Below are positions 2,918 to 19,133 of a DNA stretch of 25,956 nucleotides, piece by piece (positions within the stretch are counted from its first letter, which is position 1; every line of letters begins with the position of its first letter). Both the position numbers and the translations under genes were made by a program. The notes under the pieces were generated by a model. That model made no database searches. It worked only from the letters and a program-made list of their open reading frames with translations, and was not told the DNA's origin. Origin of the DNA: a virus (lineage: Duplodnaviria > Heunggongvirae > Uroviricota > Caudoviricetes). The stretch spans positions 1-25,956 of IMG/VR virus record IMGVR_UViG_2711768059_000012; one strand, given 5' to 3'.

Positions 2918-3856
2918 TTATTGTATTGTTAAGATAATGCTGGCTATAATTTGAATATCTTCAATGGAACACTCAAAATCCTTACTCCCACCAGAAACAA
3001 GAATTTTGTTCTTAGGTAAACGAGTTAACTCTTTTAAAGATAACTCATTGTCAATTCCTACTAACCATTTTCCATCTCTAATTAGGTGAAATTCTTTATC
3101 ACATATGACATGTTTTTCTCCATTGCTTACAAACATCAAGCTGCTAGTTTCTTGCTTCGGAAGTAGACACCGATCCATGGATAAAAAACCTGACTCGACA
3201 AGCACGCCATTGACCAAATTGAACTTATTTAAAATTACAGTGTTTTCTTCTTGTGAACTATTTGGTGTTTCGATTCCTGTAACTAGCCAGGCGAGATCCG
3301 CTTTGGTTTCTAATGCGCATTTAATCACCCAATCCGCAGGGAAAGAATCTCGCATGTATCGTGTGGCTAATGTGCTTTTTGAAATACCAAGGTGGTCGGC
3401 TAAGGCTTGGCGGGTTTTAAACCCGTAAGCATTAACAATCCTCTCTATCGCGGCTTTTCCTCCGTTAGTAAGCTCAATATGATTCTCAATGCGGCGCTTA
3501 AAGGATGATTGATGAGCGTTGCTGTTAAACCCCTCATGTGGGACTGTTTCATCATGTTGTTCCACATAAGGGGGGAAACTTTCTTCTGCATTGTTAGAAC
3601 CAAAGGCCAGCCATTCTAGGGATGCGCCAGTTTCCATTGAACATATAACAACCCAATCAGCAGGGAAGGTATCGCGTGCATATCTATTAGCCATTGTGCT
3701 TTGTGAAATACCAAGATGCTTACAGAAGGCTTGGCGTGATTTGAAACCATAGGCCTTGAGTATCCTCTCAATGACTTTTTGCCCTCCACGATTCTGCATG
3801 ACCATAGCTTTCAGACTATCTTCAATATGGCGAAATGTGATTTTTTGAGTTGACAT
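2918..3856 (-). CDS. cI: CI-type immunity repressor (186 CI family) with tandemly duplicated N-terminal HTH domain
   Basis: 312-aa ORF divergent from the apl/cII operon. Two ~58-aa copies of IERI(L/V)(K/N)AYGFK(S/T)RQA...HLGIS(Q/K)ST(M/L)A(N/T)RY(A/M)RD(T/S)FPADWV..., at residues ~29-86 and ~137-194, then a C-terminal domain. The duplication is also visible at the DNA level. Confidence 0.8.
   Translation of the reverse strand: MSTQKITFRHIEDSLKAMVMQNRGGQKVIERILKAYGFKSRQAFCKHLGISQSTMANRYARDTFPADWVVICSMETGASLEWLAFGSNNAEESFPPYVEQHDETVPHEGFNSNAHQSSFKRRIENHIELTNGGKAAIERIVNAYGFKTRQALADHLGISKSTLATRYMRDSFPADWVIKCALETKADLAWLVTGIETPNSSQEENTVILNKFNLVNGVLVESGFLSMDRCLLPKQETSSLMFVSNGEKHVICDKEFHLIRDGKWLVGIDNELSLKELTRLPKNKILVSGGSKDFECSIEDIQIIASIILTIQ
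3275..3772 (-). repeat. Intragenic tandem duplication (two ~174-bp copies, 3599-3772 and 3275-3448) encoding the two HTH modules of the repressor
   Basis: Protein-level repeat seen directly. Shared DNA strings such as gaaataccaag and aaggcttggcg occur in both copies. Confidence 0.7.
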
Positions 3857-6599: not shown

Positions 6600-7426
6600 A
6601 AGAAATGCACCACGGAATTCATCATTTCCATGGGACGCCTGTCTGGGGAAGTGCTGGCGACGTTCATCGTATTGCGGTGAGCGGAGCTGGCGCTTTCGTC
6701 TCCTATGTACGACCAGATCAGATTGCGGCGTCCATTCAGCACGCTCAGGTCGTCGGCATTGATAACGGCGCATTTTCTGCATGGGTGCGTGGGCTAAAAA
6801 TTAACTGGAGTGATTTTTATAAATGGCTCCTGAACTATTACCACCATCCTAAGGTCGCTTTTTTTGTCATTCCTGATGTTGTGGACGGAGGTGAACGTGA
6901 CAATGATGCCCTGATAAACGAAGTTCCGAAAATGTTCTACGGGAAGGCAACTCCCGTCTGGCATCTGCACGAGTCAATCGATCGGCTTATCGAGCTATGT
7001 CGTGAATGGCCTCGTGTCTGCTTTGGATCGTCTGGTGAATATGCGGCTATCAGAACTGCGCACTGGCATCGTCGTATGCAGGACGCTTTTGAAGCAATTT
7101 ATTGCCGACACAATTTCAAAACAGCTGTTCATGGTTTGCGCATGCTTGACGGTCGTGTGTTGGGAAATTACCCACTGGCGACTGCCGACAGTACAAATCT
7201 TGCCTGCAATGTCCCCAAATTTAATAGCAAATATCCTGAGCTGACGCGGGCTATTCAGGAGGCTGAGTATTCGCGCAATCTGACGGAAAAGGAGCTGAAA
7301 GCTGTCATTCTGAAAAACCGTTGCGCAATTTTAAAAGGTGCAATTGAAGCTGTTCGCCCACCTTCAGTTTCTGATTGGCTGTCGAATGGTTTGCAGCCTT
7401 CACAGCTCGAACTGGAGATTGCGTAA
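6596..7426 (+). CDS. Hypothetical protein, possibly a minimal TGT/DpdA-like (7-deazaguanine) transglycosylase (speculative)
   Basis: 276-aa ORF (GTG 6596 overlapping the dam stop, or ATG 6605). Motifs in the same order as in tRNA-guanine transglycosylases as I recall them: GTPVWGSAG (cf. TPAFMPVGT), [11 protein letters not shown] (cf. ILTDSGGFQV), FFVIPD (cf. MAFDE), FGSSGE (cf. GGLAVGE). No Zn-binding Cys cluster. The assignment rests on remembered motifs only. Confidence 0.55.
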
Positions 7427-9798
7427 TGAACTACAGCTATTCCTGGAATGCTGAGAAAAAAGCAATCAATCCTTACGTAGAGACAGAAGAGCAATCTTCA
7501 GTTTCTGCGCTTTCAAACCTGATCGCTCTGTACGCTGCCGATAACGAGCAGGAACAGCTGCGCCGCGAGGCACTGAGTGATCAGGTCTGGGAGCGTTATT
7601 TCTTTAATGAATCCCGTGATCCTGTCCAGCGCGAAATGGAGCAGGATAAGCTCATTAGTCGGGCAAAGCTGGCGCATGAGCAGCAGCGTTTTAATCCAGA
7701 TATGGTCATTCTGGCGGACGTCAATGCCCAGCCTTCCCATATCAGCAAGCCGCTGATGCAACGTATTGAATACTTCAGCAGCCTGGGCAGGCCAAAGGCT
7801 TATTCCCGCTATTTGCGTGAGACGATTAAGCCATGTCTGGAACGGCTGGAGCATGTACGCGACTGTCAGCTATCCACTTCTTTTCGCTTTATGGCAAGCC
7901 ATGAAGGGCTGGACGGCCTGCTGATCCTGCCTGAAATGAGTCAGGATCAGGTGAAACGCCTGTCCACCCTGGTAGCTGCGCATATGAGCATGTGCCTTGA
8001 TGCAGCTTGTGGCGATTTGTATGTCACCGATGACGTTAAGCCAGAAGAAATCCGCAAGACATGGGAAAAGGTGGCAGCGGAAACCCTGCGTCTGGATGTC
8101 ATCCCGCCTGCGTTTGAGCAACTCCGCCGGAAAAGAAACCGCCGTAAACCCGTGCCCTATGAACTCATTCCGGGTTCGCTGGCGCGTATGTTGTGCGCTG
8201 ACTGGTGGTACCGGAAATTATGGAAGATGCGTTGCGAATGGCGGGAAGAGCAGTTGCGTGCTGTCTGCCTGGTCAGCAAAAAAGCATCTCCCTATGTCAG
8301 CTATGAAGCCGTGATGCATAAACGTGAGCAGCGCCGTAAGTCGCTGGAGTTTTTTCGTTCTCATGAACTGGTGAACGAAGACGGCGACACGCTGGATATG
8401 GAAGACGTGGTAAACGCCAGCAGCAGCAACCCTGCGCATCGCCGCAATGAGATGATGGCCTGTGTTAAAGGCCTGGAGCTTATCGCGGAAATGCGCGGTG
8501 ACTGCGCCGTTTTCTACACCATCACCTGTCCGTCACGTTTCCATTCCACGCTAAATAATGGCAGGCCCAACCCAACTTGGACAAATGCGACGGTAAGACA
8601 AAGCAGTGATTATCTGGTCGGCATGTTTGCTGCATTTCGTAAGGCGATGCACAAAGCCGGATTGCGGTGGTATGGCGTGCGGGTGGCTGAGCCGCATCAT
8701 GACGGTACAGTTCACTGGCACCTGTTGTGTTTTATGCGCAAAAAAGACCGCCGCGCCATCACTGCATTACTGCGTAAGTTTGCCATCCGTGAAGACCGCG
8801 AGGAACTGGGCAATAACACTGGGCCGCGCTTTAAGTCTGAGTTGATTAACCCGCGCAAAGGTACGCCAACAAGCTACATCGCGAAATACATCAGTAAGAA
8901 CATTGACGGGCGTGGTCTGGCTGGCGAGATCAGCAAGGAAACGGGGAAATCCCTGCGTGATAATGCTGAATACGTTAATGCCTGGGCGTCTCTGCATCGT
9001 GTTCAGCAATTCCGCTTCTTTGGCATTCCGGGGCGTCAGGCTTACCGTGAACTGCGATTGCTGGCTGGTCAGGCGGCAAGGCAACAGGGGGACAAAAAAG
9101 CAGGTGCGCCGGTACTGGATAACCCGCGCCTTGATGCCATCCTGGCTGCTGCTGATGCTGGTTGTTTTGCCACCTACATCATGAAGCAGGGCGGCGTACT
9201 GGTTCCCCGCAAATATCACCTCATCAGAACCGCTTATGAAATCAACGAAGAGCCGACCGCCTATGGCGATCACGGCATTCGTATTTATGGCATCTGGTCA
9301 CCTATTGCAGAGGGCAAGATCTGCACTCATGCCGTGAAGTGGAAAATGGTTCGTAAGGCCGTTGATGTTCAGGAGGCGGCAGCCGACCAGGGCGCTTGCG
9401 CCCCTTGGACTCGTGGCAATAACTGTCCCCTTGCTGAAAATTTGAAACAACAAGGGAAAGACAAATCAGCTGATGGGGATACCAGAACGGATATCACCCG
9501 CATGGATGACAAGGAGTTGCACGATTACCTGCACAGTATGAGCAAAAAAGAGCGCCGGGAACTGGCTGCAAGGTTACGCCTGGTGAAACCGAAACGGCGT
9601 AAAGACTACAAACAGCGAATTACAGACCATCAGCGACAGCAGCTCGTCTATGAACTGAAGTCCAGAGGATTTGATGGCAGCGAGAAAGAGGTCGATTTAC
9701 TCCTTCGCGGCGGCAGTATTCCGTCAGGAGCAGGCCTGCGTATCTTCTATCGGAACCAGCGTTTGCAGGAAGATGATAAGTGGCGAAACCTGTATTAA
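7426..9798 (+). CDS. A: Rolling-circle replication initiator endonuclease (P2 gpA family)
   Basis: 790-aa product from ATG 7426 (overlaps the upstream stop as TAATG). HUH motif TVHWHLLCF and paired active-site tyrosines in [11 protein letters not shown]. Size matches P2 A. Confidence 0.9.
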
Positions 9799-9951: not shown

Positions 9952-10140
9952 ATGCAGGACTATTTTTTGGAGTCTTTGAAGCTCCAGCGCATTGATTTTT
10001 TTCTTAAACTTGTAGCGGCTAGTGAGTGTAGTGATGAAGAGAAGGGGCTGGCTTTGCAGTGGGTTTCTGAACTGACAGATGAACTCATGGCAAAAATCAG
10101 AACTCACGAATACAACCGCTCAATGGATGTCATCAGCTGA
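9952..10140 (+). CDS. Small hypothetical protein; possible N-terminal part of a Tum-like SOS antirepressor
   Basis: 62-aa ORF with AGGAGG RBS 4 nt upstream, immediately downstream of the LexA box. Overlaps the upstream extension of the dinI-like reading frame. Confidence 0.45.
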   Translation: MQDYFLESLKLQRIDFFLKLVAASECSDEEKGLALQWVSELTDELMAKIRTHEYNRSMDVIS

Positions 10141-10150
10141 GGTGACTTTT

Positions 10151-10384
10151 ATGCGCATTGAAATAATGATCGATAAAGAGCAGAAGATTAGCCAGTCTAC
10201 CCTAGATGCCCTTGAATCCGAGCTTTACCGCAATCTGCGCCCCCTGTATCCCAAAACGGTAATTCGTATCCGCAAAGGTAGCTCTAACGGTGTGGAACTG
10301 ACCGGACTGCAACTGGACGAAGAAAGAAAACAAGTGCTGAAAATTATGCAGAAGGTGTGGGAAGACGACTGCTGGCTGCATTGA
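10151..10384 (+). CDS. dinI: DinI-family protein (DNA-damage-inducible protein I-like)
   Basis: 77-aa product MRIEIMIDKEQKISQSTLDALESELYRNLRPLYP...VWEDDCWLH resembles E. coli DinI (MRIEVTIAKT..., acidic C-terminus). GAGGTG RBS 6 nt upstream. Downstream of the LexA box. Confidence 0.75.
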   Translation: MRIEIMIDKEQKISQSTLDALESELYRNLRPLYPKTVIRIRKGSSNGVELTGLQLDEERKQVLKIMQKVWEDDCWLH

Positions 10385-10520
10385 TAGGTTTCGTTTGTAA
10401 TGAGTCATGTTTTTTGAGTCCGATAGTAGACAGCTAGAGGGATAAATGATTAATAGATAGATTAAACATAGTGATGGGCGTAAAATCGCGCGCATTTTAT
10501 TGGCAACGGATCTGAACTCA

Positions 10521-11414
10521 ATGGCGGATAAGACTCAATCAGTAAGTATTGTGTATCAAGGCAAAGCTCTCGACGATCATAAGATGGATATTCTTTCGTT
10601 TGCGAAAAGTTTGCAGGGGCTAGGTGAGGCTATCTACTCTGCAAATGAGATTGTAAACGGAGGGCGAGACATTGAAGTTAACGTTGACGCTGAATTGATA
10701 GCCGGTTCCTTTGGGTTTGATATTGAGGTTGTACAACATCTAGCTAATGCTAAAGATGTTGTACAAATTTTAGGTTTGTCAGCCATTCCTTTAGCCGTTG
10801 GCGGTGCTACAGTTTTAGAGGTTCTCAAGAAGCTTAACGGGCGTAAGATCGACATAGTCGAGAAAGCTAACGGTAGTGACAAAGTTAAGCTGAAAGTCGA
10901 TGGTGAAGAGATTGTTTGCTCTGAAGATGTCGAAAAAATCGTTAATGCCCCAGAGATTCGTAAGGCTGTTGACGCGTTTGTCAGACAGCCTCTGTTACAA
11001 GATGGTATCGACAATTTTGTGGTAAAAAAATCGCGCACCTCTAAGAAAGAAATCCTCAAAATTCATAAAGATGAGGCAGAAGAGTTTAAGTCGCCAAAAG
11101 TTCTCTTTGAAACCAAAGAAGAAGTTGACGAATTTGAAACAACCGTGACATTCGTTTCGGCGCATACTGACAAAAAAAGTGGCTGGCGTGTTGAGTTTGG
11201 CGGTGAAAAGCGCAATGTCAGAATGGAAGATAATGAGTTCATCAAGCTTGTTACTGGACCAGACGCCCCCAAAATTTTTGGCGAATTGTTTGCTGTGAAG
11301 ATGAAGAAAATTGTGAAAGATTCCGGTGGCCAGGTAGACGAAAAGTTATCGATCATCAAAGTGGGTCGACACTTTGCCGCCAAAGATAGAAAAATAAAAC
11401 CTGATGCGGATTAA
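10521..11414 (+). CDS. Hypothetical soluble protein, first gene of a three-gene accessory module
   Basis: 298-aa (ATG 10521; TTG 10500 also possible), Lys/Glu-rich, no recognised catalytic motif. Sits in a visibly AT-rich stretch. Stop is 2 nt before the next start. Confidence 0.6.
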   Translation: MADKTQSVSIVYQGKALDDHKMDILSFAKSLQGLGEAIYSANEIVNGGRDIEVNVDAELIAGSFGFDIEVVQHLANAKDVVQILGLSAIPLAVGGATVLEVLKKLNGRKIDIVEKANGSDKVKLKVDGEEIVCSEDVEKIVNAPEIRKAVDAFVRQPLLQDGIDNFVVKKSRTSKKEILKIHKDEAEEFKSPKVLFETKEEVDEFETTVTFVSAHTDKKSGWRVEFGGEKRNVRMEDNEFIKLVTGPDAPKIFGELFAVKMKKIVKDSGGQVDEKLSIIKVGRHFAAKDRKIKPDAD

Positions 11415-11416
11415 AA

Positions 11417-11680
11417 ATGTCTATAGATATTAGTGTGTTAGGATGGTTGGGGCTGCTTGTTGCAGCTCCAGCTATATTTATAGGTGCTAGAGTGGCTATA
11501 CGTAGCCTGCTCGATCGAGTTATTGTCGAAACAAAAGTTTCTATCACTTATACTGATGCAAACAAAAATGTCTATAAAACAAATATTTATATAAACAATG
11601 ATGATGAGTTAATAAAGCTCATCGATGATATAGCAGAGAAAAATAAGCGTGAGAGGAAGGAGTCAGCCTCTCATGCCTGA
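11417..11680 (+). CDS. Small membrane protein (one N-terminal TM helix), second gene of the module
   Basis: 87-aa. Hydrophobic VLGWLGLLVAAPAIFIGARVAI then a charged C-terminal tail. Coupled to both neighbours. Confidence 0.55.
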   Translation: MSIDISVLGWLGLLVAAPAIFIGARVAIRSLLDRVIVETKVSITYTDANKNVYKTNIYINNDDELIKLIDDIAEKNKRERKESASHA

Positions 11681-12089
11681 ACAAAAGAAAACAAGCGGTA
11701 AAGCAGTCGGTGTTACAGGTGGCGGCGGTGTAGGCCTTTTCCTAATAAAGCTGGCTAGCTTCATTACAGATCCAACATGGAAAGACCTTTACATTGCTTC
11801 AATACCGATGGTGTCAATTCTTTTAAGCGAAGTTTTTACTTTTGCATGGACGATTTATGCTGTTGATCCGCAAGAAATCAAACTGAAAAGGCGGTTGAAG
11901 GCTCTGAAGAAGCAAGCCGAAGCAGTTTTAAATGCACCATCGTCCCCTGTTTCTCCAGAAATGCGAGAGAAAGCGCAGGCTCGTTACGACGTGATCTGTG
12001 GAATTGAAATGGGAATTTACCCCCTCTCAATTGTAAATACGCTAGATGGAAAAGTATCCCCCACAGCGCAAACGCCGGACGTTAAATAG
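11673..12089 (+). CDS. Small membrane protein (two predicted TM helices, Gly-zipper), third gene of the module
   Basis: 138-aa from ATG 11673 (GAGGAAGGAG upstream; 8-nt overlap with previous gene). GVTGGGGVGLFLIKLASFI and IASIPMVSILLSEVFTFAWTIYAV hydrophobic segments, then a basic coiled region. Confidence 0.55.
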   Translation: MPEQKKTSGKAVGVTGGGGVGLFLIKLASFITDPTWKDLYIASIPMVSILLSEVFTFAWTIYAVDPQEIKLKRRLKALKKQAEAVLNAPSSPVSPEMREKAQARYDVICGIEMGIYPLSIVNTLDGKVSPTAQTPDVK

Positions 12090-12152
12090 CAGTTTCTACT
12101 TTGCATGACTATGCTGCATGAAATCGCATGATCGTTTGAGGATCGTTTTTGC

Positions 12153-12180
12153 AAAAGCCCGCCAGAACTGGCGGGCTTTT
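12153..12180. terminator. Perfect 13-bp inverted repeat hairpin (AAAAGCCCGCCAG-aa-CTGGCGGGCTTTT), likely bidirectional intrinsic terminator
   Basis: Read directly: the arms are exact reverse complements, with A-run and T-run flanks. Lies 64 nt after the module stop. Confidence 0.65.
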
Positions 12181-12225
12181 GCGTAGAGCATGCATCTGCA
12201 TGAAAACCACTACATAAAGCGGGCA

Positions 12226-12244
12226 GGCGTGGCGGGGATACGAG
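12226..12244. other. Candidate cos (cohesive-end) site
   Basis: GGCGTGGCGGGGATACGAG. The first 13 nt match the 186 cos 19-mer as I recall it (GGCGTGGCGGGGAAAGCAT; 15/19 overall), and the A-to-Q location matches where cos lies in P2/186. Confidence 0.4.
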
Positions 12245-12326
12245 TGCGCGCAATACGGTTCGATAAGAATTCACTTCGACTATGTTTTTAGATAATCTGG
12301 CAATAAAAGGATGAGGAGAATGGCAA

Positions 12327-13568
12327 ATGCAAAGAATAGTTTTTTACTCTTGGCAATCTGATTTAAATGGAAAATGTAATAGAAATTTAATTCAAGATGC
12401 TTTGGTTAGATCTCTAAAAGCAATAAAAAAGGATGAAACAGAAACATTGGAGCCAGTCTTGGATCGTGATACTAATGGTTTAAATGGCTCACCATCAATT
12501 AGCGAAAGCATTTTTAATAAAATATCACTTTCAGATGTTTTTGTTGCCGATGTTTCTATCATAAATGGAAGGTCTGAGGATAAGAAGACACCTAATCCAA
12601 ATGTTTTGATTGAATTAGGATATGCAGTATCCCAGCTAGGCTGGGATAGAGTAATCATGGTCCAGAATACATTTTATGGTTCTCCAGAAGAACTTCCTTT
12701 TGACTTAAGAGGACGGAGGGTAATTGCATATACTATGGACCCTGATAGTGATTCAAAACCTGAGGTAAGAAGCTTACTGCAAGGGCGACTTGAAACTGCA
12801 TTAAGGGAGTCCTTGAGTGATTCAAGCCAAGGAGCTATTTCTTCAGGTTTAAATGCACCAATATGGTGGGGGGAGTGGTACAAGGACAATCGCAGAAGTA
12901 ATTTTGGCAAATTATTTATTCGTGAAACATCGTCAAATGGTTTTCTTTTTGATTTAGTAGTTATGAATGGATCACATTCTGGGAGTATTACAGGAGAGGC
13001 GGTTTTTGTAGCTAGAGATTCAGCTTACGCTAGAATAAAAATACCTGGAAGTAATGAATTTGGCGAGTTGAGTTTTAGGCGCAGCATATTTGATGGTAAA
13101 CGATATATTAGGATAAGTGAGACCGTTAGTTGTCAATACTGGCGAGGTATGGGGGCCTTTTTTGATGGTGAGTTTCGTTGTGCAGAGGATCATTTGTTTT
13201 TATTTGGTTTTGCAAATGAAATGGAACTTCAGAGATTATACAACGTTATGGGGCAATATTACTTTGAACTGAAAAAAGTGATGGAGCAAATAGGTGAGCG
13301 CGATAATCTTGATACTTTTGTCGCAAAGGCTTATCAGGGAGGAGTTAGAGGACTTTATACCATTGCGGAAGGTATGGTGATGTTTGGTAGAGAGGGCGAG
13401 ATATGGGCTATTTATCTCAATGATGGTGAAATTCGTTATTTCACAAATGTACATAAATGGAAAAAAACTATTCCAAAAACTTTTGAACAGTGGCGAGAAC
13501 GATTTCCAGAGATTGAAATAAATTATGGAGGTGATATCTCGACACTTCCTACACAAGAAGATTTATAG
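12327..13568 (+). CDS. Two-domain protein: N-terminal TIR-like/nucleoside 2-deoxyribosyltransferase-like domain plus uncharacterised C-terminal domain; candidate anti-phage effector
   Basis: 413-aa. GAGGAG RBS 7 nt upstream. N-terminus RIVFYSWQSD (cf. TIR beta-A FISYSxxD) and NPNVLIELGYA (Glu96 in an E-[LI]-G-Y-A context as in the NDT/TIR-like superfamily). Very AT-rich. Followed by a hairpin terminator. Confidence 0.65.
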   Translation: MQRIVFYSWQSDLNGKCNRNLIQDALVRSLKAIKKDETETLEPVLDRDTNGLNGSPSISESIFNKISLSDVFVADVSIINGRSEDKKTPNPNVLIELGYAVSQLGWDRVIMVQNTFYGSPEELPFDLRGRRVIAYTMDPDSDSKPEVRSLLQGRLETALRESLSDSSQGAISSGLNAPIWWGEWYKDNRRSNFGKLFIRETSSNGFLFDLVVMNGSHSGSITGEAVFVARDSAYARIKIPGSNEFGELSFRRSIFDGKRYIRISETVSCQYWRGMGAFFDGEFRCAEDHLFLFGFANEMELQRLYNVMGQYYFELKKVMEQIGERDNLDTFVAKAYQGGVRGLYTIAEGMVMFGREGEIWAIYLNDGEIRYFTNVHKWKKTIPKTFEQWRERFPEIEINYGGDISTLPTQEDL

Positions 13569-13575
13569 ACAAATG

Positions 13576-13610
13576 ACCCGCGATTCGCCAACGCGGGTTT
13601 TGTTTGTTCA
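13576..13610. terminator. Hairpin (ACCCGCG...CGCGGGT) followed by T-rich tract; terminator between the convergent accessory gene and Q
   Basis: 7-bp GC-rich stem with 9-nt loop then TTTTGTTTGTT. An A-run follows, so it may act in both directions. Confidence 0.55.
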
Positions 13611-13621
13611 AAAAAAAATCA

Positions 13622-14665
13622 TTAAGTTATGTTGGGTTCAAATGCATAAGAATCAAAACGAATTACTTGTTCATTGGCCCAGCTATTCAGTTCCTCAAAA
13701 CGCTTCTGTAGAGGGATCAGTTCATTTCGAACAAAAACGCGGCTGGCCTTCTCCACATCCCCAAACCCCCCGACATTATTCGGCATAATCCCCATCATCT
13801 GTGGCGGAACACGATGCGCCGCCATCATGTCATCGCGGCTGACGTTCTTGATGTTCAGAAATTCATCTTTCGCCGCGACTTCTGACAACGGGATGATCTG
13901 AAGCCCGTCTTTTTTGCCGTTAGGCGAGTACATAAACAGGTTGCGGAAGTTGCCCGGGCCTTTGGCGCTTTTCATTGCGTTGCGGAGGTTGTTCACGTCC
14001 TCCTGGTTCTGCGCGGCATCGGTCATGTACATGATGAAGCCTGCATGACTGCCGTTAATGTAATACTTGCGGCGGAACAGCGTGGCGGACTCGTTGAGCA
14101 GGGCTGACGGAATGGCAGAAAGATAACCGGGCAGGCCGTAGATCTCCTGGTTGATATCCGGTTCTATCAGATGAAAAATGCTGCCTTTCGTGAACTGATA
14201 CGGCTGGGTTGTCATACCGTATTGCACAAACCAGTAGGTATCCAGGTCTAACCCGCGTCGGGTGTATTTTGCCAGAGCAGGCTCAAGGGCGATAACTTCA
14301 CCGAAGCGGTTCGTGCGTTTCTCCAGGTAGGCGTTACCAAATACCAGATAGTCCTGCACAAAACGTGAAAAAGCCTGCTGGCTGAGCAGCGGGTGGGGGA
14401 TGTAGGTACTGGTCAGAATGTTGCATTTCACCGCAATTGGTGAACTGTGATGCACGGCGGCGCGGAAGGTGCGCGCCAGTCCGTCAAAGCTTACTGGCGG
14501 CTCATACCAGCGATCTGTCTGTACGCATTCCACATAGTCCAGTAGTTCGCGGCGGTCCAGAACAGGAACGGGATCACCGAAGCTGAATGCTTCGGCTGTA
14601 GTCTGACTTTTATGCTGGATCTGGTTCGTCGACGCAGCGCGGTTCTTCTTACTCTTTCCCATCAA
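13622..14665 (-). CDS. Q: Portal protein (P2 gpQ family)
   Basis: 347-aa (P2 Q is ~344 aa). Start overlaps the stop of the upstream terminase gene. Conserved position next to P and divergent from O. Confidence 0.9.
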   Translation of the reverse strand: MMGKSKKNRAASTNQIQHKSQTTAEAFSFGDPVPVLDRRELLDYVECVQTDRWYEPPVSFDGLARTFRAAVHHSSPIAVKCNILTSTYIPHPLLSQQAFSRFVQDYLVFGNAYLEKRTNRFGEVIALEPALAKYTRRGLDLDTYWFVQYGMTTQPYQFTKGSIFHLIEPDINQEIYGLPGYLSAIPSALLNESATLFRRKYYINGSHAGFIMYMTDAAQNQEDVNNLRNAMKSAKGPGNFRNLFMYSPNGKKDGLQIIPLSEVAAKDEFLNIKNVSRDDMMAAHRVPPQMMGIMPNNVGGFGDVEKASRVFVRNELIPLQKRFEELNSWANEQVIRFDSYAFEPNIT

Positions 14666-16428
14666 AAAATCTCCACAATATTACTGGTATTGGCGGACTC
14701 GCCCTGCAGTGGTTCGTTAAACAGTGCGTGCATTGTTGCCCAGGCCAGATCGGCGTGGCTGGCTTCTTCGCTGCGGCTGGCTTCATAGGTTGGGCGGTTG
14801 CCACTGGCGGTGGTTGCGCGACGGATTGCCATGAATGACTGCGCAATGTCGGTGTGCCCGGCGTCAAACTCCAGACGGCGGTGGCTGATAATGTCGTAGG
14901 CCTTGAGTACCAGGGCGTTTTTAACGTTGGGGTTGTAGACAAACTCCCGGACGGCAGGAAAGAACGCTTTCACGTTCTCGTAAACCCCGTGACCAACGCC
15001 GGTTGAGTCGATACCGATATAAGTCACGTTGTACTGCTCGGTAAGTTTTTTGATGGCGTCAGCCTGGGCGCGGAAGTCCATCCCGCGCCACTGGTGACGC
15101 TCAAGAATGCGGAACTTACCACCCGGCACGGCTGGCGGTGCCACCACCACGCATCCAGCGCTGTCGCCGTTTTGCGTACCTTTTGCCGGGTCATAACCGA
15201 TCCACACTTCGCGCCAGCCAAACGGGCGCAGCGCCAGTGCATGAAAGTCGGTCCAGACTTCCCAACTGTCCACCATGCACGCCTGCAGCTCGCTGAGCGG
15301 AAACACGGACGCGAGATCGTCCACAAACTCGCACATCAGCAGGTTCTGGTATTCGTCCGGGCTGTACTCCATGCGTAGCTGGTCGAGGTCGAACAGGTTA
15401 CAGCCGCCGCGCACCGCATCTTCTACGGTGACTATCTGGCGGTATTGCCCGTCTGCGCACAGCAGGCCGGGGGCCAGATTGCTGTGGGACAGGTCGATGT
15501 CCACCTTGTCGGCTTTGTTGCGCCCACGGTTGAACAGCGCACCGGACCAGAACGGATAAGCACTGTGTGTCAGACTGGATGGCGTGGAAAAATAGGTTTG
15601 TCGCCATTTTTTGTGAATAGCCATACCGGAAGCCACTTTGCGCAGCTCCTGGAATTTCGGTATCCAGAAATATTCATCCAGATACAGGTTGCCGTGGTAA
15701 CTCTGGGCCGTGCGGGCATTGGTGCCGAGGAAGTAAAGCGTGGCCCCGTTAGGAAGCACCATCGGATCGCCTTTCAGCTCCACCTCCACTTCTTTGGCAA
15801 AGTCGATGATGTACTGTTTAAAGACGTGGGCCTGAGCCTTGCTGGCAGAAAGGAAAATCTGGTTACGCCCGGTCAGCAGGGCGTCAATCAGGGCTTCACG
15901 GGCAAAGTAAAAGGTCGCGCCGATCTGGCGTGACTTCAGCAGGTTGCGGATGCGGTTGGTTTTTCCGGCTTCCCACCAGTGGCGCTGGTAGTTGAACATG
16001 GAGGAATGGAAGATTTTTTCCAGCTTCTCAATCTGTTCATCGGTGAAGACATTCTTTTCCGGCTGACGGCGCGGGCCTTTGTTGCGGTTGGCGACGTTAG
16101 GGTTTAAGTCAGCTTCGTTGCCGCCATTGTTAAACTTGCCGATCCGCGCGTGGCGCTCAGACTGGCGCGCCAGCAGGTCAATCTCTTTGAAATCTTTCCC
16201 TTCTTTGTGCTCCTTCATAATGAGCTGGCAGTAGCGTGCGGCGGTGGTGAGCTGCATCTGATCCAGCGGCCCATAGTCACCCCACTTGTCGCGTTTTTTC
16301 CAGCTGTGAACGGTTGCAACTTTCTCGCCCAGCATTTCAGCAATGCGGGCGACGCGGTATCCCTGAAAGTACAGCAGCATGGCCTGCCGACGGGGATCGA
16401 GATCTGCGGGTGTCAGTGTGGTGTTCAT
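14662..16428 (-). CDS. P: Terminase large (ATPase) subunit (P2 gpP family)
   Basis: 588-aa (P2 P ~590 aa), adjacent to and co-directional with Q, divergent from the capsid operon. Confidence 0.9.
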   Translation of the reverse strand: MNTTLTPADLDPRRQAMLLYFQGYRVARIAEMLGEKVATVHSWKKRDKWGDYGPLDQMQLTTAARYCQLIMKEHKEGKDFKEIDLLARQSERHARIGKFNNGGNEADLNPNVANRNKGPRRQPEKNVFTDEQIEKLEKIFHSSMFNYQRHWWEAGKTNRIRNLLKSRQIGATFYFAREALIDALLTGRNQIFLSASKAQAHVFKQYIIDFAKEVEVELKGDPMVLPNGATLYFLGTNARTAQSYHGNLYLDEYFWIPKFQELRKVASGMAIHKKWRQTYFSTPSSLTHSAYPFWSGALFNRGRNKADKVDIDLSHSNLAPGLLCADGQYRQIVTVEDAVRGGCNLFDLDQLRMEYSPDEYQNLLMCEFVDDLASVFPLSELQACMVDSWEVWTDFHALALRPFGWREVWIGYDPAKGTQNGDSAGCVVVAPPAVPGGKFRILERHQWRGMDFRAQADAIKKLTEQYNVTYIGIDSTGVGHGVYENVKAFFPAVREFVYNPNVKNALVLKAYDIISHRRLEFDAGHTDIAQSFMAIRRATTASGNRPTYEASRSEEASHADLAWATMHALFNEPLQGESANTSNIVEIF

Positions 16429-16474
16429 GGCACAAACCTACAGCCTTGAATGAAGGCTTTCCCCGCCTGCGGTT

Positions 16475-18482: not shown

Positions 18483-19133
18483 ATGAGCCTGAGTCCCGCA
18501 CGGCAGCATCGCCTGCGCGTTCAGGCTGAACAGGCCGCTCGCGAGGGTGGCAGTGTTCGCCACGCGTCGGGCTATGACCTGATGCTGCTGCAACTGGCGG
18601 AAGACCGCCGCCGTCTCAAGGGCGTTCAGTCCACGGTCAAAAAAGCGGAAATCAAGGTGGAGCTGCTGCCGAAATATGCCGCCTGGGCGGAGGGCGTTCT
18701 GGCTGCCGGAGGCGCTCAACAGGATGACGTGCTGATGTACGTGATGCTGTGGCGCATTGATGCCGGAGATTATGCCGGGGCGCTGGAGATCGGGCGTCAT
18801 GCCCTGCGTCATGGCTGGGTGATGCCGCTGGGTAACCGCAACGTGCAGACCGTGCTGGCAGAGGAAATGGCAGACGCGGCGCAGAGCGCAATGCTTGCCG
18901 CCACCGGCTTTGATGCCGATCTGTTGCTGCAGACGCTGGAGCTGACAGACGGTCTGGATATGCCGGACCAGTCACGGGCGCGTCTGCATAAAGCGGTTGG
19001 CGCTGTCCTGAGTGAAAGCAACCCGGCTTCCGCCCTTAATCATCTCAACCATGCGTTACAGCTCGATCCTCGCTGTGGCGTGAAAAAAGACAAACAGCAG
19101 CTGGAGCGCAGACTGCGCAATGACAGCCGCTGA
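18483..19133 (+). CDS. M: Terminase small (endonuclease) subunit (P2 gpM family)
   Basis: 216-aa, GGAG RBS, follows N as in P2. Confidence 0.85.
   Translation: MSLSPARQHRLRVQAEQAAREGGSVRHASGYDLMLLQLAEDRRRLKGVQSTVKKAEIKVELLPKYAAWAEGVLAAGGAQQDDVLMYVMLWRIDAGDYAGALEIGRHALRHGWVMPLGNRNVQTVLAEEMADAAQSAMLAATGFDADLLLQTLELTDGLDMPDQSRARLHKAVGAVLSESNPASALNHLNHALQLDPRCGVKKDKQQLERRLRNDSR

Follow-up and report, generated by a model that had tools for sequence, protein, structure and literature searches.

Gene order and packaging functions of the prophage

The stretch of DNA analysed here (the window; 25,956 nucleotides, IMG/VR record IMGVR_UViG_2711768059_000012) is a P2-family prophage in prophage order that ends inside the tail genes. 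Klebsiella phage 4LV2017 (Peduoviridae, Elveevirus) matches 74% of the window at about 96% identity. Its genes and cargo regions of interest are listed below.

1-1032, - strand: integrase
1105-2874, - strand: Old homologue (PADLOC Old, 8.7e-234; AAA_15 and OLD-like TOPRIM)
2918-3856, - strand: CI
7375-9798, + strand: gpA
10079-10384, + strand: DinI (PF06183, 8e-21)
10500-12089, + strand: right-end cargo slot, from DinI to cos, with three ORFs of which the first is a PDC-S42 candidate (PADLOC PDC-S42, 7.8e-44)
12327-13568, + strand: left-end cargo slot, from cos to Q, with a 413-aa TIR-domain protein (PF10137 CAP12/Pycsar TIR, 6.7e-6; PADLOC TIR effector, 1.8e-9)
13622-14665, - strand: portal, gpQ homologue (PF04860, 1.1e-17; position and strand as P2 Q)
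14662-16428, - strand: large terminase, gpP homologue, by which cosN would be nicked (PF03237, 3.1e-65; PF17289, 1.7e-49; PF06056, 3.3e-27)
18483-19133, + strand: small terminase, gpM homologue, with the cos block as its expected target (PF05944, 2.2e-40)

The O, N, M and L genes follow P on the + strand, and full-length genes are present for the large terminase (TerL), small terminase (TerS), portal, scaffold, capsid and gpL. The presence of a DinI/Tum-type gene hints at SOS control. The predicted cos site lies between gpA/DinI and the leftward Q-P operon, an order that is the same in P2 and 186. A full-length Old homologue is found between the integrase and CI, whereas old of P2 is cos-proximal; this placement fits the minor integrase-to-primase hotspot of PMC13586616, and 4LV2017 has a different, hypothetical gene of 350 aa at the same place.

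A conserved 152-bp block around the predicted cohesive end

The sequence GGCGTGGCGGGGATACGAG occurs once in the window, at 12226-12244 on the + strand, within a conserved block of 152 bp (12101-12252) that has variable cargo on both flanks. Blastn against 50,697 phage records gave 89 matching records, of which those listed cover about 12102-12253 only, and no phage record in this search covered 80% of the query. In a separate scan of IMG/VR, 115 unique sequences among the matches listed carry the exact 19-mer, and their column conservation goes up sharply at 12101 and down after 12252. Because conservation starts and ends there, the functional unit is probably the 152-bp block, made up of some 125 bp towards the right arm, the overhang of 19 bp and a further 7-8 bp towards the left arm. 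The following elements were placed within it.

12103-12131, + strand: three GCATGA repeats, candidate gpM recognition repeats, in register -123/-110/-100 from the predicted top-strand nick
12151-12182, no strand assigned: perfect inverted repeat, part of the cos block (fold; dyad centre -59.5)
12197-12251, + strand: 55-bp cos core, homologous to the P2/P4 core (junction searches)
12198-12203, + strand: fourth GCATGA, inside the core, at -28
12219-12225, + strand: heptamer GCGGGCA, directly 5' of the predicted top-strand nick (12225/12226), mirroring the other-strand heptamer
12226-12244, + strand: cosN, predicted 19-nt 5' cohesive end (identity to the SEN8 19-mer)
12245-12251, - strand: heptamer TGCGCGC (GCGCGCA on the - strand), directly 5' of the predicted bottom-strand nick (12244/12245), identified by its conservation

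The circular junctions of P2, 186, P4 and SEN8 were rebuilt from both ends of each record and searched against the whole window, and each had one significant place. The 186 junction aligned to 12160-12251 (93 bp, E 1.8e-15), that of P4 to 12191-12253 (E 1.6e-9) and that of P2 to 12197-12251 (55 bp, E 7e-8), while all other matches in the window had E values of at least 0.002. The core, which comprises the 19-mer with 29 bp ahead of it and 7 bp after it, is identical to that of SEN8 at 53/55 positions, 186 at 45/55, P2 at 43/55 and P4 at 42/55. PMC5694545, PMC3931495 and PMC2231350 credit the 55-bp core of P2 and its satellite P4, both of which have 19-nt 5' cohesive ends, to Ziermann and Calendar (1990). 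A further cosN-like sequence, AGGCGGGGAAAGC, lies at 16456-16468 on the - strand, in the divergent P-O late-promoter region; it matches the P2/186-type cosN interior at 13/13 positions, above the match to the window's own cosN, and with an E value of 0.23 it is probably due to chance.

The 19-mer itself fits the related G-rich cosN pattern of the P2 family, GGCG(A/T)GGCGGGGA..., with 15/19 positions identical to 186 and 14/19 to P2 and P4, from which it thus differs at 5/19 overhang positions. The 186 record (NC_001317) annotates bases 1-19 as cos (GGCGTGGCGGGGAAAGCAT), and the P2 record annotates GGCGAGGCGGGGAAAGCAC as cosL. The first-pass annotation had called the 19-mer cos-like and had given its first 13 nt as common to 186; both statements hold, the latter against the annotated 186 bases 1-19, with the difference from 186 confined to the last six overhang bases (AAGCAT versus TACGAG). 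It had also asked for a comparison with P2 and 186 cos and their flanks, and the similarity proved to reach well beyond the G-rich run, since the match to P2, 186 and P4 also takes in the TGCGCGC that follows the 19-mer and some 125 nt ahead of it.

The geometry of the block is also shared. Counted from where the 19-mer begins, GCAT starts at -123/-110/-100/-28 in the window, 186, P4, SEN8, Fels-2 and Yersinia phage MLG42, and at -122/-110/-100/-28 in P2; this fixed-register criterion was drawn from the reference sequences compared here and not from the literature. Five GCATG occur within 105 bp, a density reached by none of 500 shuffles. The GCATGA repeats are candidate recognition repeats of the small terminase (gpM). 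At the other side of the predicted cut, the columns 12245-12251 are conserved at roughly 0.9 or more in the 115 loci among the matches listed. The 3' heptamer is TGCGCGC in P2 and 186 as well, and CGCGCGC in P4, SEN8 and Fels-2, so that position 12245 of the window is T as in P2 and 186, whereas the SEN8 group has C; the top-strand heptamer corresponds to GCGGGCG in P2 and P4 and to GTGGGCA in 186. The heptamer equivalents in P2, P4 and 186 are one base different from those of the window. A similar heptamer 5' of each predicted nick would explain the conservation of the 7 bp after the 19-mer, and a role of the heptamers in nick specificity may be suggested.

The closest characterised relatives carry the same site. 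The record of SEN8 (Felsduovirus, NC_047753) starts at the identical 19-mer, annotated as 'putative cos site', and ends with ...AAAGCGGGCA; in the genome announcement (PMC5427200) cos is given as ggcgtggcggggatacgag under genome annotation, without an end-mapping experiment. The 19-mer is likewise identical in Fels-2, RE-2010 and MLG42, and the homologous first 59 bp of Elveevirus Cartapus are annotated as putative cos. Compared with SEN8, the block is 90.7% identical over 151 bp (E 3e-57). The window and the SEN8/Fels-2 group have the GCAT spacing, hairpin, T-run and cargo between cos and Q in common, and differ in that the window has a stem extended to 14-15 perfect pairs and other cargo on both sides. 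The cos site and its layout have thus already been described for close relatives, and this is an ordinary cos in its usual context; what appears specific to the window is its cargo on both sides and the extended perfect stem.

Several related loci depart from this pattern. In 4LV2017 (10804-10822 of that locus) the 19-mer has a G-to-C change at position 12, GGCGTGGCGGGCATACGAG. In the record of phage 500465-1 the 19-mer is reduced to 18 nt by the loss of one G, and the fragmented state of the portal and terminase genes suggests that sequencing errors are present there. An identical P2-type 19-mer was found at 1475-1493 on the - strand of IMGVR_UViG_2700989567_000009 (hereafter L044), whose early genes are lambdoid-type (RecE/RecT, YdaT, DnaC/IstB-like, DUF977 and a tyrosine integrase) and which has a DndB-like gene after cos; there the hairpin is 20 bp long, with the same core, other outer arms and no T-run, and there is no GCAT at -123/-110/-100. 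L044 may represent a hybrid phage, or else a satellite dependent on a terminase of the P2 type. When P4 Psu, Delta, Sid and Alpha were searched by tblastn against 240 loci, one weak Psu-like match was obtained (27% identity), on metagenome contig OGZI01002510.1 (L202), with the Psu-like ORF 1.3-1.8 kb upstream. L202 shares the 19-mer, core and GCAT repeats and shows no obvious hairpin at the -59.5 position; a P4-like satellite with this cos variant is a possible reading of this single case.

Considering this evidence, we propose that 12101-12252 is the cos of an apparently intact Fels-2/Elveevirus-type P2-family prophage and would work as in P2, 186 and P4, a reading to which we give a probability of about 0.9 and which draws on the sequence homology, conserved geometry, gene content and flank variability observed. 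Homology, position and architecture support the assignment of 12226-12244 as cosN of a P2-family cos site. We infer the cut positions from homology with P2, 186 and P4, because no experimental end-mapping for this 19-mer variant was found in the literature searched; in IMG/VR and the metagenome collection, no contig among the matches listed starts or ends exactly at the 19-mer, and the closest contig end lies 4 nt from it and does not fit a filled-in end. A chance similarity between a G-rich stretch and the 186 cos has the G-richness of the 19-mer in its favour and nothing else. It is contradicted by flanks that match 186 over 93 bp and by motif spacing as in 186 and P4 (the first GCAT of P2 being at -122), and only 0.01 matches to the 19-mer with three or fewer mismatches are expected by chance in the window; the junction searches and the motif spacing lead us to reject this explanation as having a negligible probability. 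Alternatively, the site could be a relic in a defective prophage, where cutting and packaging have been lost, which would agree with the window covering only part of the element and ending inside the tail genes. The head and packaging genes are, however, all full-length, the core differs from that of the viable phage SEN8 at just 2/55 positions, and at both of these the base of the window is that of P2 and 186 or that of 186 and Fels-2. We therefore consider a relic very unlikely, and a functional cos of the P2 type remains the preferred reading.

The hairpin upstream of the predicted cohesive end

A perfect hairpin ahead of the 19-mer, as noted in the first-pass annotation, is present at 12151-12182, the originally given start of 12153 being an A-tract inside the stem. 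Positions 12151-12164 pair with 12169-12182 in 14 Watson-Crick pairs around a GAAC loop, and at the DNA level the stem is 15 bp with a loop of 2 nt. The fold of 12140-12195 has a free energy of -32.8 kcal/mol (z = -6.95), and none of 200 shuffles was as stable. On the + strand the stem is followed by TTTTGCGT, which is the form of an intrinsic terminator. Among the 115 unique relatives in the matches listed, the hairpin folds at -10 kcal/mol or below in every one, whatever the upstream cargo, and at -15 kcal/mol or below in 104, with a median of -23.6; a T-run, TTTT(G/T), lies 3' of the stem arm in about 90 of the 115. The conserved stem in these relatives is 8-10 bp, and a perfect stem of 14-15 bp is unique to the window, where the outermost extension GCAAAA/TTTTGC is the only window-specific part. 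The loop (12165-12168) is GAAC in the window and many relatives, and the reverse complement GTTC in Fels-2, RE-2010, 4LV2017 and others, a pattern that looks like loop inversion.

The position of this dyad is shared more widely than its sequence. Its centre is at exactly -59.5 in the window, 186, P4, SEN8, Fels-2 and MLG42, despite stem sequences that differ between 186 (CGCCAGAGCTGGCG), P4 (ACCGCGCC-attccc-GGCGCGGT) and the Fels-2/Elveevirus lineage. The 186 dyad is short and has no T-run, and the p95 terminator of 186, t95b, lies upstream of the block. No T-run follows the equivalent dyads of P4 and L044 either, and no dyad at -59.5 was found in P2. Neither dyad nor GCAT is universal, as P2 and L202 are without the dyad and L044 is without the upstream GCAT repeats.

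The main hairpin escaped a pattern scan for terminators in the window, MLG42 and Fels-2, since its T-run can be drawn into an extended stem; the window has only four T 3' of the stem, and these can pair in this way. What the scan does call in all three, on the - strand, is a weak hairpin of 5 bp within the core (12222-12207 in the window), and in phages with an empty right slot it found no other + strand terminator-like site between DinI and cosN. Rfam models searched against 11400-13700 gave no known RNA family, the sole result, below threshold, being an alignment of the hairpin with the terminator portion of an unrelated leader (E 0.83; score 22 bits, gathering threshold 55).

The origin and function of the hairpin can be explained in different ways. 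Its place 62 nt past the stop (12089) of the final cargo ORF and its terminator-like form would be expected if it were the terminator of the three-gene module, had arrived with it and were unrelated to cos. This explanation is contradicted by the conservation data, in that the hairpin is inside the conserved block, downstream of GCATGA repeats, and is present in relatives with other upstream cargo or none; we rejected it as highly improbable. Because it is inside the block and present whatever lies upstream, the hairpin appears to belong to the cos block and not to the cargo. It might still be primarily a packaging element, as a dyad to which the small terminase or a host factor binds or as part of the structure of cos, with its terminator look incidental. 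The constant centre in the window, 186, P4, SEN8, Fels-2 and MLG42 despite differing stems agrees with such an element, and the lack of a T-run at the dyads of 186, P4 and L044 (the last with its 20-bp version and different outer arms) points to a packaging role instead. However, the dyad is absent from P2, which has the best-studied cos of the family, and from L202, and it is therefore not generally required; moreover, the T-run is kept in about 90 of the 115 sequences of the lineage among the matches listed, and in phages whose right slot is empty no terminator-like structure comes between DinI and the hairpin. Stem variants compatible with wobble pairing, 30 of which fit the + strand and 20 the - strand in counts that are not independent, fit packaging and terminator roles alike. 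An element primarily for packaging, with incidental terminator form, thus seems rather doubtful to us.

In our reading, the hairpin would be an ancestral cos-region dyad that also serves as an intrinsic terminator in the Fels-2/Elveevirus lineage. We rate terminator activity in this lineage as slightly better than an even chance, inferred from stem, T-run and position; a direct packaging role, which would be compatible with it, is suggested more tentatively. A broader proposal is that the -59.5 dyad is a functional, fixed part of most P2-family cos sites, perhaps co-opted here as a terminator, and that the 152-bp block is a homology anchor for independent exchange at two slots; this combination is speculative, and we consider it rather unlikely as a whole. 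The dyad occurs in 186, P4, the Fels-2/Elveevirus lineage and the lambdoid-type L044, and is missing only in P2 and a few others. Neither the dyad as a cos component nor the block as an anchor was found in the literature searched, and the older P2/186 literature may cover both.

Cargo slots on the two sides of cos

The right-end slot of the window contains a 304-aa PDC-S42 candidate followed by ORFs of 87 and 146 aa, for which no Pfam or PADLOC match was obtained. In the left-end slot, the TIR domain is confined to about residues 54-151 of the 413 aa, no domain was assigned to the C-terminal 260 aa, and a terminator-like hairpin (13582-13599) lies between the TIR gene and Q. HMM matches mark this cargo as candidate defence genes (PDC-S42, 7.8e-44; TIR effector, 1.8e-9). 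Among the matches listed, the right-end insert was found in no other of 120 related IMG/VR loci, and the same was true of the left-end TIR insert.

The occupancy of the two sides was measured in loci with the identical 19-mer among the matches listed, the window included; as the loci lack phylogenetic independence, the fractions are approximate. The distance from the cos block to the Q stop is about 150-190 bp in 9/87 loci and above 500 bp in 78/87, and from the DinI stop to the block it is about 80 bp in 23/81 and at least 300 bp in 58/81. In the 55 loci of this set that were measured on both sides, cargo is present on both in 40, right of cos only in 10, left only in 4 and on neither in 1. 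The first-pass annotation had called a gene between cos and Q unusual for P2, which is right for P2 and 186 and does not hold for this lineage, where that slot is filled in 78/87 of the matches listed. P2 and 186 have a terminator alone between cos and Q/W, and Q/W ends about 170-180 bp from cos; the right arm of P2 contains old and tin, no gene separating cos from Q, and 186 has DinI/Tum-type genes on the right arm, as the window does, and, unlike the window, no gene between cos and W (the Q homologue). Named phages with a filled cos-Q slot are Fels-2 (a 565-aa protein), RE-2010 (an AIPR protein), 4LV2017 (a retron effector and reverse transcriptase), SEN8 (two genes), Cartapus (DUF4145) and 500465-1 (a TIR protein).

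When the inserts of the identical 19-mer loci among the matches listed were clustered, they fell into 34 types on the left and 67 on the right. A left type represented by six loci was paired with six different right types, loci with an empty left slot (n=11) showed ten, and a right type represented by four loci was combined with three left types, again among the matches listed. Given these mixed pairings, the left and right inserts appear to assort independently, as would be expected of two separate slots split by the cos block. With cos at 12226-12244 and intact terminase and portal genes, it would follow that virion DNA has the TIR gene as its leftmost cargo and the PDC-S42 three-gene module as its rightmost, next to either end. 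The two cargo sites at opposite ends that the first-pass annotation had envisaged are in this way upheld, by the cos homology and the independent assortment of inserts.

Several reports have placed foreign genes in this region. Rousset et al. (2022; PMC9122126) described the cos-proximal gpA-gpQ interval as a defence hotspot of P2-like phages, and PMC13586616 also gives it as a cos-proximal hotspot; Askora et al. (PMC5694545), citing Dodd and Egan (1996) and Nakayama et al. (1999), refer to cosL-to-Q as a place suggested to be a hotspot for foreign genes. The window is like the P2 gpA-gpQ hotspot in having variable defence-type genes (the PDC-S42 candidate and the TIR protein) that flank cos between gpA/DinI and Q. 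It differs from the description in the hotspot papers, in which gpA-gpQ is one hotspot, whereas here two independently assorting slots appear to be split by the cos block. The two-slot picture is a refinement of a known hotspot and not a new system.

We propose a model for the processing of this site. Upon induction, the excised and replicated circular genome would be recognised by the terminase, gpM and gpP, by analogy with P2, 186 and P4, for the last of which closed circles are the preferred packaging substrate (PMC2231350). Recognition would take place through the side of about 125 bp upstream of the cut, with its GCATGA repeats at -123/-110/-100/-28 and the dyad at -59.5. Nicks made next by the large subunit, at 12225/12226 in the top strand and at 12244/12245 in the bottom strand, each just 3' of a GCGSGCA heptamer, would leave 19-nt 5' overhangs of GGCGTGGCGGGGATACGAG. 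The left end of the virion DNA would begin with the TIR gene, followed by Q and P, and the right end would carry DinI, the PDC-S42 module and then the cos recognition side. The hairpin, with its GC-rich stem and T-run, would probably also act as a factor-independent terminator of rightward DinI/cargo transcription before cosN, and the cos block would separate two independently exchangeable slots of the gpA-gpQ defence hotspot.

For annotation, a cos at 12226-12244 would set the linear map of the prophage. As the PDC-S42 module and the TIR gene would occupy different slots, they should be treated as separate cargo units and not as one island, and the 152-bp block may be a handy anchor to find both slots in other Fels-2/Elveevirus-type prophages.
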